A stretch of DNA of 64,000 bases from Flavobacteriales bacterium (GCA_024643755.1 JAHEMG010000008.1:928-64927); one strand, 5' to 3'; counted from the stretch's first letter, positions 43,869 through 53,255 are shown. A program made the numbers and translations. The notes: generated by a model from the letters alone, not told the origin.

Positions 43869-44996
43869 TCATTTTCTTGGCGATTGTCGAGGATCCACAA
43901 AATCCATCGAATACAAAAATTTCCGATCGGTCAACGTCATCAAAAAAGCCACCAAATCCACGCGCTCATTGGCATCCAACGATATATCAATCACCTTTCG
44001 CTGCCCCTCACCAGAATCCCCAGAAATACCCGAACCACCCCCATCGCCCCGAACCACCAACCGCTTTCCTGAATAGTTTTTCACCACCTGATATAAAGAT
44101 TGAAACCCGCCATTGTGCATATACGGAAAACTCACCTCCACATTCCGCAACGTAGGAATCTTCATGTGATACGCATCATTCACCAAACCTGTAACCAGCG
44201 CCCTACCCCTATCCAAACCACTCACCACAACACCCGCAGAATCCATGCCTTTCAACCCATCAGCCCATCCATTGTATTCGTATCCGGGACGGGTAAACAG
44301 GGGCTCGGTATGACAAGCAGCGCAGAATTTTTGAAACAACGCATACCCCCTATTTTCTTGTTGGGTGAAGCTGATCTGTTGTCGACGCATAGAATCGTAT
44401 CGAGACTGATCACTCACGAATGTGAGCTCAAACCGGGCGATGGCTTTTAGCGCCAGGGGCAATGAAATCGGCTGATTTGGGTACGCTAAGGCAAACAGGG
44501 ATTGATACCGCGGATTTTGTTTTATGCCATTCAAATAGTCTTGGAGCGACATGCCCATTTCTGTGTGTGCGGCGATGGGTGCCATGGATTGCAACTCCAG
44601 ATGTTGGATGGCACCGTCCCACATGAATCCCGATTGCCAAGCGAGGTTCATGAGGGCCGGCGCGTTGCGCCGGCCCTCCCTATCGAAAACACCGTGACTC
44701 AATTTGTGGTCCACGTGTGCAAATGCCGTGTATGACGTATGACAGCTGCCACAGCTCACTTTGCCATCCGCCGATAGCGATTCATCGTAAAACAAAACCC
44801 TGCCCAACGCAATTTCTGCATCCACGTTCACACCATTCGAAAATACCAATATGGGCTTTGGCCATCCCTCCCGCGACAATCGCTCATACCTGCGCTCCAC
44901 AGATTTCGCATCGCCCAATCCACCCCCCGCATATCCCAAAATCACACAGCCGCTCAAGGCAACACAAACAATCCCAATCCAGCCTGTCCTTCTCAT
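43869..44996 (-). CDS. Di-haem cytochrome c peroxidase family protein (MauG/MbnH-like)
   Basis: Two CxxCH motifs (CGSCH, CAACH), the RNAPALMN motif and PYMHNG. It lies immediately downstream of an MbnP-like gene. Confidence 0.85.
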   Translation of the reverse strand: MRRTGWIGIVCVALSGCVILGYAGGGLGDAKSVERRYERLSREGWPKPILVFSNGVNVDAEIALGRVLFYDESLSADGKVSCGSCHTSYTAFAHVDHKLSHGVFDREGRRNAPALMNLAWQSGFMWDGAIQHLELQSMAPIAAHTEMGMSLQDYLNGIKQNPRYQSLFALAYPNQPISLPLALKAIARFELTFVSDQSRYDSMRRQQISFTQQENRGYALFQKFCAACHTEPLFTRPGYEYNGWADGLKGMDSAGVVVSGLDRGRALVTGLVNDAYHMKIPTLRNVEVSFPYMHNGGFQSLYQVVKNYSGKRLVVRGDGGGSGISGDSGEGQRKVIDISLDANERVDLVAFLMTLTDRKFLYSMDFVDPRQSPRK

Positions 44997-47207: not shown

Positions 47208-47272
47208 TGATGTTGTTTTTGTTCAAAAACAAGACGACAAAAATCATCGCTGTCCCCCTCAACCGAAAAAAT

Positions 47273-48559
47273 TTATTTCAATAAAAATTCTTCACCGTTG
47301 ACAAATACGCGATCACAATGATTTTGCGCAACAAAATACGGGATGGCCTTTATGGCGTCTACCGTATTGGTGGTAAAGAAGTTGGCGCGCTGGCCTGCGG
47401 CCAGCGCGCCAACTTCTTTTTCGCAACGCAGCGCCCGCGCTGCGTTGCACGTAACAGCATAAAATGCCTCTGCCGGCAACAGTTTCTGTTGCGTACAGCC
47501 CAAAGCCCATACCATTTGCAAACTCGCTATCGGACTGCTCCCCGGGTTAAAATCAGTAGCCATCGCAAAAGGCAATCCTGCATCAATCAATGCCCTCCCC
47601 GGAGCATATGGAATCCCCAAAAAATAACTCGTACCCGGCAATCCCACTGGTACCGTCCCTCCGTATTCTAATTCCAACGACGACCGCAACAAATCAATCT
47701 CTACCTCGCTGCAATGCTCCAAATGATCTGCACTCCAACTGACATTGGCCACCGCCACCTGAACACCTCCCGTTAACCCCAACTCATTCGCGTGAATTTT
47801 CGATGGCAAACCCATCGCCGCAGCCGCCTTCAAAATTCGATCGGTCTGCTCAACCGTAAAAAACCCACGATCACAAAACACATCGATATGATCTGCCAAC
47901 CCCTCTTCCACCACCTTCGGCAACATGTCTGTTATCACCAAATCCACATACTTATCTGGCTCCCCCTTAAACTCCATCGGAATGCCATGCGCTCCCAAAA
48001 AAGTAGCCTTAATCAAAATGTCAAAATCCTGCTTCAATCGCTTTACCACCCGCAACATCTTCAACTCACTCTCGGTGGTTAACCCGTAACCACTTTTGAT
48101 CTCCACCGTGGTTGTGCCATGGGCAATCATCACCTTCAATCTATCCGCTGCCGCTGCATACAAATCATCCTCCGACATCACCTGCAACTTGCGCGCAGAA
48201 TTCAATATCCCTCCCCCGGCTGCCGCAATCGCTTCGTAACTCTCACCGCGCAATCGCATTTCAAATTCTTCGTGCCTCGGCGCCGCAAAAACAATGTGCG
48301 TATGCGAATCCACCAAACCCGGCAAAACCTCAACCCCTCCCAAATCTATGCGCTCCAAAATTTCGTCCTCACCCATCGCCCCAACATCCTCTCCATAAGA
48401 ACCCTCAGCCCCACCCAAGCCCACGATCCTGCCATCTTCCACCAACATCCAAGCCGAAGTGAATGCCTCCACCTCGCCCATTTCCGCTCCACATCGATAA
48501 CGACCCCGCTCAGCAGCCACACCCCACATCTTTGAAATACCATGAAATAACTTGCGCAT
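47273..48559 (-). CDS. hutI: Imidazolonepropionase
   Basis: LPGLVDSHTHIVFAAPR, GGGILNS, TTVEIKSGYGL, KIHANEL and ATDFNPGSS motifs. Start at ATG 48557-48559. The 97-codon N-terminal extension in the track ORF has no homology-like features. Confidence 0.9.
   Translation of the reverse strand: MRKLFHGISKMWGVAAERGRYRCGAEMGEVEAFTSAWMLVEDGRIVGLGGAEGSYGEDVGAMGEDEILERIDLGGVEVLPGLVDSHTHIVFAAPRHEEFEMRLRGESYEAIAAAGGGILNSARKLQVMSEDDLYAAAADRLKVMIAHGTTTVEIKSGYGLTTESELKMLRVVKRLKQDFDILIKATFLGAHGIPMEFKGEPDKYVDLVITDMLPKVVEEGLADHIDVFCDRGFFTVEQTDRILKAAAAMGLPSKIHANELGLTGGVQVAVANVSWSADHLEHCSEVEIDLLRSSLELEYGGTVPVGLPGTSYFLGIPYAPGRALIDAGLPFAMATDFNPGSSPIASLQMVWALGCTQQKLLPAEAFYAVTCNAARALRCEKEVGALAAGQRANFFTTNTVDAIKAIPYFVAQNHCDRVFVNGEEFLLK
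47375..47448. repeat. Two adjacent perfect palindromes inside hutI (21-bp arms with TGC centre; 12-bp arms)
   Basis: 47375-47419: AAAGAAGTTGGCGCGCTGGCC TGC GGCCAGCGCGCCAACTTCTTT. 47423-47448: GCAACGCAGCGC CC GCGCTGCGTTGC. Both verified base by base. Confidence 0.95.
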
Positions 48560-51333: not shown

Positions 51334-53255
51334 TATCGCTACACGCTGCTGCGGGACAGGCACAATCGCACAGTCACAGTGAAGGTTGTGAGGATGAATC
51401 TGTGGCGATTCACAGCGATAGCGCATGGAACAAAAATGCGAATGACCAAGGAGCAAAGAAATCGCAGTTTGGAGATAGTGTATTATATATCAATCAGATC
51501 AAAGATGGAGACATTTTATGGCATCCTTTGCTCTCAGAAGAGGAAGCCATGAATGTGGTGCAGCACAAACAGCGGTTTGGCGACATTTTAGATCCGGCGG
51601 AGTTGATCCAATGTGGTTTTTCCGTTGAACGTATTGCGGCGATCCAAAAATTCTTGGTTTGCGACATCCCCTTGCAATGGCAGTGGAAACAATGGTTAGC
51701 AGCAGCCCAAACATGTAAAACAACCGTTTTGATGGGTGGAAAAACGCTGTGGAACGACATTGGGAGCAGTGAAGGAAGCGGGTATCAAATGCAGGTTAGG
51801 ATCAACAACAACAAAACAGTATCGCTGGGTGCTTCCTTGCAGCGCGATCCCGGAGAATGGTTCCGCATTGTCCCAAATCGCAAAAATCTCAGTGCCATAT
51901 TTACGAATTACCACCTTCGTGTTTCGGCATTTCGAGGAATTGAATCACTGATTTTCGGTCGATACACGCTACAACTCGGACAGGGCCTGGTACAAGCGGG
52001 GATGTCGGGCTTCTGGAATGCACCCATCATTTGGGCACGACGAACGCCAGACTGGGGATTATCAGAAAAGCGGGGTTGGGACGAATACCAGGGACATACG
52101 GGATTGGCCATGGATTACAGGGTATTGGGCGGAAGATTGCGGGTGATTACGGCAGTTTCGCGAGGGCGGGTTTCGGCCCGATTGGATTCCATGGGTGGGA
52201 TGAGCAGTTTGATTACCGATGGCAATTTTGCTTCCGAGCGACAGCGAGCCTATGAGAACAATACTTGGCAGGAGCATGTAACGGGGGCGCTATTATTGGG
52301 GAAAGCTGGGGCATCGTGGAGTAGTTATCGGTACGATCGGATGTGGCAGAGCAAGGCAGACTGGCCGCGGCCCGCGCTGCGCGCGGGCCGCATGTTCCAT
52401 TATCCTGAATGTTGGGTAACCCAACACACCCCCGGCGGCGGTTTGGCGTTTTTGCATATTGCACTACAATGTCAACCCAACCAAACGCCCAAACCCGCCG
52501 CCGTGGCCGGCTGGATACTCCCGCTCAACCGACAATCCGATATTTCGCTTCGCGGCTATGTGATACACAACCAATTCAGACCACCCCAAGGACTATTTAA
52601 TCAACTCAGCCCCAACCATTGGAGTGGCTCCGCCACCTTTTCCCACGGCGCCACCGGCAAGCAAAGCTTGCGGTGGGCCGTGGAACTCAAACAACCCCTT
52701 TTGCCCAATCAAAATCTGGAGCGACCATTAACCTACCGACATCAATGCCTCTGGGAACAACGACTCAAAAACCACCTACACCTTCAAGGAATCTGGCAGT
52801 GGAACAACGAAATCGACGCAACAACACCCGAACACAAAATCACCCTCATCCTCAAATACCAACAAAATCCGGCAAATACCCTTGAACATCAAATCACCAT
52901 CGTCCCCCAGCCCCAATCCTCCCAAGCCTCTTGCCTGTACGCCTTTACTTTGGTCCACAGACACCCTTTCTCACCCCTGAAATGGGCCGCCGAATGCATC
53001 GCCTTTGATACCGAAACACCCTTGTATTTCACCCAACAAACCCTACCCCATGAAATCACCCACTTCACCCTTTCACAAAAAGGAATTGCCCTCAACACCC
53101 TCCTCCAATACACCTTAAAACACACCATCTCACACCACCACAACAAACACCCGCACTGGCAAATCCATATGGCCGCACGCAGCGAAATCATCATCAAAAA
53201 CACAACAGAAAACCCCTTACAACCCCGTATTTTTGTATCATTATGGCTGAAATAA
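51306..53255 (+). CDS. Hypothetical large secreted protein with N-terminal helix-hairpin-helix (ComEA-like) motif and beta-rich body
   Basis: ATG 51306 gives the signal peptide [58 protein letters not shown] resembles an HhH DNA-binding motif. The remaining ~550 aa are beta-rich. The start is uncertain (51225 also possible). Confidence 0.45.

Follow-up and report, generated by a model that had tools for sequence, protein, structure and literature searches.

Two adjacent perfect palindromes in the hutI coding sequence of an uncultured freshwater Bacteroidota, probably maintained by template switching between their arms

Why should the gene of a conserved enzyme carry, inside its coding sequence, a perfect palindrome of 45 nucleotides (nt) with a second perfect palindrome beside it, and what keeps such structures intact? 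This question is raised by hutI, the imidazolonepropionase gene encoded in the 64,000-nt stretch of Flavobacteriales bacterium DNA analysed here (GCA_024643755.1 JAHEMG010000008.1:928-64927; hereafter the window). Comparison with related sequences suggests, with a probability that we put at roughly 0.6, that the palindromes are held perfect by template switching between their arms, without need of any hairpin function.

The hutI coding sequence occupies positions 47273-48559 on the minus strand, as indicated by the list of open reading frames (ORFs) and by matches in Pfam, NCBIfam and PDB, and it hosts both palindromes. With the protein start set at MRKLFHG, its product has 428 amino acids, matches the Pfam family Amidohydro_1, scores 397.7 bits against the NCBIfam hutI equivalog TIGR01224 (cut-off 298) and has the imidazolonepropionase 2bb0 as its top PDB match. 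A repeat search and direct reading of the sequence bore out the preliminary description of this locus, which had reported a 21+3+21 palindrome at 47375-47419 (palindrome 1; arms 47375-47395 and 47399-47419) and a 12+2+12 palindrome at 47423-47448 (palindrome 2; arms 47423-47434 and 47437-47448); in both, the arms are 100% complementary. Both also lie in frame, as had been stated, and jointly encode CNAARALRCEKEVGALAAGQRANFF, 100-175 nt upstream of the hutI stop. Palindrome 1 corresponds to exactly 15 codons (381-395), which specify K E V G A L A in one arm, A in the spacer and G Q R A N F F in the other, and palindrome 2 to codons 371-379 (C N A A R A L R C). The 3-nt spacer of palindrome 1 (47396-47398) reads GCA on the coding strand and encodes Ala388. 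Because the symmetry centre of palindrome 1 falls on the middle base of codon 388, every third codon position pairs with a first position of the partner codon. A 117-amino-acid ORF antisense to hutI (47318-47671, plus strand) encodes GKEVGALACGQRANFF, which mirrors the hutI peptide; such mirroring is the automatic result of an in-frame palindrome and gives no evidence of a gene. At the other end of hutI, the TTG start listed at 48552 for a divergent hexapeptide-repeat (gamma-carbonic-anhydrase-like) gene overlaps the hutI start codon region at 48559, and one of these two overlapping starts probably lies further in.

The 21-nt arms go far beyond chance, as the preliminary description had argued. 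Within the window the 21-mer occurs only as these two arms, and allowing up to 3 mismatches we found no match in 100 dinucleotide shuffles. At the same tolerance it is unique to palindrome 1 across the whole 2.36-Mb genome. Folding had been proposed for both strands, and the 106-nt stretch gives -66 kcal/mol on each, with z about -7.8.

We codon-aligned 126 distinct C-terminal hutI sequences drawn from genomes of the genus, family and order, from GTDB species genomes and from metagenome contigs. The source genome is a metagenome-assembled genome (MAG) of an uncultured freshwater Bacteroidota, and its relatives were recovered from metagenomes of lakes, ponds and rivers. No indel occurs anywhere in the palindrome region of this alignment, and the encoded peptide runs without gaps along the conserved C-terminal motif G-x-[IL]-x-x-G-[KMQ]-x-A-[DN] in all 126 orthologues, so that the palindromes are no insertion, in agreement with what had been read from the sequence of the window. 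Every hutI sequence with 81% identity or more to the query has both palindromes, with 0-5 mismatches (mostly 0-2), and every one with 70% or less lacks them, including two species of the same genus (G012 and G017). The non-carriers have AT-rich third positions and S, M or D where carriers have A, Q or N, and their arms are complementary at only 8-13 of the 21 positions. The preliminary description had set two outcomes of such a comparison against each other, conservation of the palindrome beyond the needs of the peptide and the same peptide written in other codons. The former stands for the close orthologues, whose palindromic codons are preserved much more strictly than the peptide demands. 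The latter does not, since the distant orthologues that lack the palindrome differ in the peptide as well.

In a maximum-likelihood tree of hutI from which the palindrome codons had been left out, the carriers group together as one clade (32 rows, support 100/99), whose branches add up to 2.19 substitutions per site. The identical perfect 45-nt palindrome recurs in independent metagenome assemblies and MAGs (L092, L093, L096, L098 and L104), which excludes for the window the assembly artefact that had been considered a possibility. Palindrome 1 of hutI has decayed in one species, G004 (L041, contig C25), where 5 mismatches have accumulated in 18 pairs, among them the synonymous changes GGC to GGT, CTG to TTG and GCC to GCG, and where the inverted spacer described below is still present. 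This decay indicates that the palindrome is dispensable.

Synonymous sites within the clade are strongly conserved in the stems. Four-fold degenerate sites are 85-100% identical there and about 50% identical elsewhere in the gene. When the window is compared with L007, with which it shares 80% amino-acid identity in HutI, such sites are identical at 13 of 13 positions in the stems and at 68 of 137 in the remainder, and seven further pairwise comparisons give a similar picture. Synonymous codon identity among clade members is highest (0.88-0.93, with a gene mean of 0.69) exactly over codons 366-395. When synonymous changes are counted by parsimony on the clade tree, the palindromes have 1.05 changes per codon and the remainder of the gene 2.73. 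The same comparison made by residue gives 0.83 against 3.71 for Ala and 1.0 against 4.23 for Gly. Among 295 contiguous 25-codon segments, the seven with the lowest values all fall between codons 364 and 400, over or beside the palindromes. The loop codons are free to vary: on the same tree the third position of R375 changed four times and codon A388 five times.

Changes in one arm are matched by changes in the other. Across 23 distinct clade sequences 95.3% of cells are paired and five stem pairs have been altered on both sides, with a covariation score of 0.088, compared with 0.041 in shuffles (0 of 500 reached the observed value) and 0.007-0.023 when partners are slid. In palindrome 1, GTT/AAC has become GTG/CAC (N393H), the one-sided form GTG/AAC being found in L015 and the complete one in L105 and L102. 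GCG/CGC has been replaced by TCG/CGA (A385S) and also by ACG/CGT, of which L035 carries the one-sided form ACG/CGC and L116 the complete one; AAA/TTT has changed to GAA/TTC, and AAT occurs with ATC (F395I). In palindrome 2, 10 of the 12 pairs are invariant in the clade and the outermost-but-one pair covaries between C-G and G-C; TGC...TGC has become CGG...TCC (C371R with C379S). One-sided intermediates of paired changes thus persist in sister lineages. Several of these paired changes replace a residue of the motif (N393H, F395I and A385S, and C371R with C379S), and the replacements occupy the outer end of a stem in which 18 GC-rich pairs already exist.

The centre of palindrome 1 has changed by inversion. 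In L091, which is 99% identical to the window sequence (L001), the spacer is TGC (Cys) instead of GCA. In another subclade the spacer is part of a 9-nt centre that is inverted between members: L106, L107 and L041 carry GCC TGC GGA, the exact reverse complement of the TCC GCA GGC of L004/L033 and L099. The pair TCCGCAGGC/GCCTGCGGA accordingly separates L004 and L099 from L106, L107 and L041, and with the inversion of the 9-nt centre a single mismatch shifts to the opposite arm. L106 is sister to L004 in the hutI tree (99/86) with L107, and then L099, outside, a placement that calls for at least two inversion events in this subclade unless recombination moved alleles. In all, as judged from contigs and not from reads, the centre of palindrome 1 was swapped for its exact reverse complement at least twice, and probably a third time. 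Since the arms in this subclade, at 18 nt, are shorter than the smallest k in common assembly use (21), and since three independent assemblies are involved, the inverted form is unlikely to be an assembly error.

We propose that the coding palindromes arose in the common ancestor of this one clade of an uncultured freshwater Bacteroidota genus, within a hutI motif that is already partly self-complementary by codon (G/GGC with A/GCC, L/CTG with Q/CAG, A/GCG with R/CGC and V/GTT with N/AAC). Their upkeep would be due to intramolecular copying between the arms, that is to template switching of the DNA polymerase at the hairpin (quasi-palindrome correction, or sequence-directed mutagenesis); Ripley-type quasi-palindrome correction is a related known process. 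Such copying could homogenise the arms, a mismatch in one arm being either erased or copied to the partner arm, or could invert the spacer, the segment between the perfect arms becoming its own reverse complement. Enforced complementarity would put the synonymous sites of palindrome 1 under amino-acid constraint, with the stems frozen and the loops left free. Taken with the codon register of palindrome 1, it explains the synonymous freeze without further assumption. The palindromes would persist because conversion outpaces decay and because the protein tolerates the residues imposed on it, and no hairpin function would be required.

The preliminary description had named quasi-palindrome correction by template switching as the last of four possibilities, and it is this one that the spacer inversions, the paired arm changes and the perfection of the outer ends through amino-acid changes favour. 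The hutI palindrome bears the signatures of template switching, namely a perfect inverted repeat within a coding sequence without indel, spacer inversion and mirrored arm changes, and every testable aspect of the hutI data appears to agree with this model. Two observations argue for template switching over selection on the hairpin. The outermost pairs have been perfected through nonsynonymous changes in the motif (F395I, K/E381 and N393H) for which the gain in stability is negligible, and the inversions show directly an interaction of the arms as DNA, frequent enough to be seen in strains only 1% apart. A mutational bias, moreover, directly explains the nonsynonymous paired changes at the stem ends. 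We infer that template switching rather than hairpin selection is the maintaining force, and would reconstruct the first formation of the palindromes as outlined above. An origin by one single template switch was ruled out because each arm departs from the outgroup consensus at two residues.

We also made a census of perfect palindromes in the last 70% of each long ORF of the genome (1.46 Mb), with within-gene synonymous codon shuffling as the null. This gave 14 intragenic palindromes with arms of at least 12 nt, where 0.7-0.9 were expected, and 9 with arms of at least 13 nt, where 0.1-0.2 were expected. Most are 70-96% GC, 14 of 19 have a 3-nt loop and the hutI palindrome is the longest of them; the longest palindromes of the genome overall are its bidirectional terminators. 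Palindromes with arms of at least 12 nt have a density of 9.6 per Mb here and of 4.1 and 12.3 per Mb in two relatives. A similar excess over shuffles was found in the sister species G012 (800 kb) and in the order-level relative G039 (400 kb), and a lineage-specific excess of coding palindromes was rejected on account of the similar densities in these two genomes. The excess in all three genomes tested fits a general process.

Other genes of the genome (G000) offer comparable cases. One is a SelD/AIR-synthase-like gene, whose perfect 14+3+14 palindrome (L171 1755-1785, contig C7:4318-4348) encodes EVEAALRAAST. The 8-10-bp core of this palindrome, GAGGCCGCGC-TNC-GCGCGGCC, is retained through the clade that carries the hutI palindromes, its synonymous sites being invariant in 11 species of the genus, with variation only at the loop centre, while the residues flanking the core diverge to about 60% identity. 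Neither G012 nor G017 has this palindrome, and neither has those of hutI. Coding GC is 41.1% in G012, the same-genus sister lineage without either, against 46.7% in the genome of the window. A YyaL/thioredoxin-domain gene has a 14+4+14 palindrome encoding AQAAAAAAAWA (L185 1672-1703, contig C3:7245-7276), at the place where its counterparts in G008 and G009 (L186 and L190) have perfect loopless palindromes of 32 nt. These versions differ by paired TCG...CGA to GCG...CGC changes, two of which are nonsynonymous (S to A and D to A). The second longest intragenic palindrome of the genome, a perfect 19+3+19 of 51% GC, encodes NPYGSRPLAWNHMD in a ComEA-like (helix-hairpin-helix) ORF of 275 amino acids (contig C187:14875-14915). 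Two further GC-rich perfect palindromes with 3-nt loops lie in long ORFs on contig C150, at window positions of approximately 44652-44678 (GAGGGCCGGCGC-AAC-GCGCCGGCCCTC) and approximately 52367-52391 (GCGGCCCGCGC-TGC-GCGCGGGCCGC).

Several points weigh against the template-switch explanation of the hutI palindromes. Selection on the hairpins would produce identical conservation and covariation. The origin needed at least four amino-acid replacements together with many synonymous changes, we found no intermediate lineage, and template switching has little to work on in a weak quasi-palindrome. That two strong, neighbouring hairpins appeared on a single branch suggests design more than accident. 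As to the inversions, the single loop flip of L091 lies in 21-nt arms and is ambiguous for an assembly graph with k=21, and homologous recombination between strains could have spread one inversion and so produced part of the pattern. The census, finally, uses ORFs as a proxy for genes and may take in a few terminators.

Selection may thus have acted on the structures themselves. The twin hairpins could be a selected cis-element, whether an intrinsic terminator of antisense (plus-strand) transcription that enters hutI at its 3' end, a sense-strand terminator or insulator within the gene that responds to translation, or a structure for mRNA stability or ribosome pausing, and the frozen stems and compensatory changes would then reflect purifying selection on pairing; we regard this as possible but doubtful. 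The low folding energy and z score on both strands count in its favour, as do conserved stems with variable loops and significant covariation, and it accommodates the two adjoining hairpins on one branch whose ancestor was poorly palindromic. In shape, too, the site recalls a terminator. On the plus strand its GC-rich core is followed by TTCTTTTTC, no terminator-like hairpin is found after the hutI stop, and the genuine terminators of this genome are long perfect palindromes of similar form. Like the bidirectional one at 403-441, the hutI palindrome combines great length and perfect pairing with a GC-rich core, a loop of 1-3 nt closed by GGCC and A-rich/T-rich outer arms. Unlike it, the hutI palindrome sits inside a coding sequence 100 nt before the stop, has outer arms dictated by codons and is not called by the terminator scan. 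These outer arms derive from the ancestral E-x-E-V and [DN]-F-F codons, which orthologues without any palindrome also have, and the resemblance to the 403-441 terminator, which had been pointed out, is therefore generic. The U-rich tails are likewise set by the ancestral E-x-E and F-F codons and are variable (TTCATTTTC, TTCTTCTTC), and on the plus strand the core stem reaches TTCTTTTTC only when the A-T base of the full stem opens, with a tail that differs among relatives. The preliminary description had envisaged the termination of an antisense transcript, and no test supported this. Neither a convergent gene nor a predicted promoter feeds the plus strand, the consensus promoter and terminator scan found nothing at or beside the palindromes and no plus-strand promoter in 47208-47374, and an eye-matched Bacteroidota-type -7 motif near 47320 was dropped as its codons lack extra synonymous conservation. 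No transcription unit ends at the palindromes, which are inside the hutI coding sequence with no convergent plus-strand gene, and termination on the sense strand, 100-175 nt inside that sequence, would leave a non-stop mRNA. A search of Rfam 15 returned only microRNA-precursor models (17.5-23.6 bits against a 90-bit cut-off), so that no family was matched. Transition mismatches give G-U pairs about equally on sense and antisense strands, with no preferred RNA strand in this small sample. Decay in G004 also speaks against a selected element, and selection for stability leaves inexplicable why the outermost pairs of an 18-21-bp stem were perfected at amino-acid cost. The downstream context, finally, varies within the clade. 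Among sequences that keep the palindromes, hutI is followed by an extracytoplasmic function (ECF) sigma factor (in the window and some relatives), by a lipoprotein-like gene beginning MKKITTLALFAA, by a convergent gene or by others, which indicates that the palindromes are not tied to a particular neighbour. Variation at this downstream junction in L001-L116 points to frequent rearrangement. We found no clear terminator after the hutI stop in the clade members or outgroups examined, and the idea of a terminator that moved into the coding sequence was rejected as uninformative, given that carriers and outgroups are alike in this respect and that their downstream genes differ. That a selected cis-element forced the replacements S385A, M/K390Q and D393N, and later N393H and F395I, or that a recombinase-free flip of the loop serves as an Ala/Cys two-state switch of residue 388, seems unlikely.

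Other explanations dispense with selection on pairing. The stretch might have been homogenised recently among clade members by homologous recombination or horizontal exchange, its palindromic form being incidental. Freshwater populations do recombine, the 75-nt stretch is near-identical between lineages whose four-fold sites elsewhere are about 50% identical, and allele sharing could mimic repeated inversions. The conserved block, however, matches the stems to the nucleotide, yet the loop codons within it changed 4-5 times, and subclade-specific paired differences (TGC/TGC against CGG/TCC, and GCG/CGC against TCG/CGA) track the gene tree. As exchange also leaves unexplained both the perfect self-complementarity and the same pattern in the SelD-like and YyaL-like genes, we consider it quite improbable. 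Chance, through the codon usage of a peptide rich in Ala, Gly, Arg and Leu, is very improbable, as is an assembly artefact: the motif is indeed partly self-complementary by codon, and outgroups match at 8-13 of 21 positions, but the census excess for arms of at least 13 nt (with hutI the longest), the lack of any match in the 100 shuffles and the identical sequence in several independent assemblies stand against them. An in-frame insertion of a mobile or dispersed element of the REP, MITE or RPE type is hardly credible. This genome does have many GC-rich palindromes with GGCC close to the loop, but the length difference to the 126 orthologues is zero, the arms are unique in the genome and the encoded residues are the conserved motif itself; the gap-free alignment and the uniqueness of the arms refute a dispersed repeat family or mobile insertion.

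The hutI palindromes are thus, as we think rather probable, a striking new bacterial case of an already known mutational process. They would provide an unusually clean bacterial example of how mutation alone can mimic synonymous constraint, compensatory covariation and parallel nonsynonymous changes in a motif, and a warning for the prediction of RNA structure from covariation in coding regions and for inference of the dN/dS type. They would also mean that the choice of amino acids open to a protein can be set by a DNA palindrome. Should the hairpins be functional after all, hutI would be one of few examples in which a regulatory structure takes precedence over a conserved protein motif. An excess of inverted repeats in prokaryotic coding sequences was reportedly described by Ladoukakis and Eyre-Walker in 2008 and put down to sequence-directed mutagenesis.

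In coding genes of Saccharomyces cerevisiae, Abraham and Hazkani-Covo (2021) described arm homogenisation and spacer inversion that are recurrent, the inversions also arising in parallel lineages, and that cause clustered amino-acid changes, and the changes due to template switching can imitate positive or compensatory selection (PMC8604942). The mechanism and its signatures have also been reported for RNA hairpins (PMC8794818). As in yeast (PMC8604942), hutI has a short inverted repeat within a coding sequence, with arms made and held identical through multinucleotide changes, recurrent spacer inversion and nonsynonymous changes. It differs from the yeast cases in its perfect and far longer arms (21 and 12 nt), held over a deep divergence, with about 50% four-fold identity elsewhere in the gene; the organism is a bacterium known only from metagenomes, two adjacent palindromes lie in a conserved enzyme motif, and the mechanism is read from comparative patterns. 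Perfect coding palindromes are also found in the mitochondria of Nematomorpha, and Mikhailov et al. (2019) argue that active conversion between arms makes a function unnecessary there (PMC6649704). The two systems share arms that both encode conserved protein, palindromes that are perfect or absent with few intermediates, and dynamic behaviour between lineages. The nematomorph repeats, however, are up to 284 bp long and abound in most mitochondrial genes, whereas the longest arm here is 21 nt and the intragenic palindrome density is no higher than in relatives without the hutI palindromes, so that there is no genome-wide syndrome. In the non-coding regions of Proteobacteria, Lavi et al. (2018) found perfect inverted repeats to be over-abundant and over-conserved and invoked correction by template switching (PMC5941160). 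The hutI palindromes resemble these in being long and perfect, in excess of the null and conserved beyond their flanks, and differ from them in being coding, in belonging to Bacteroidota and in displaying explicit events of inversion and covariation.

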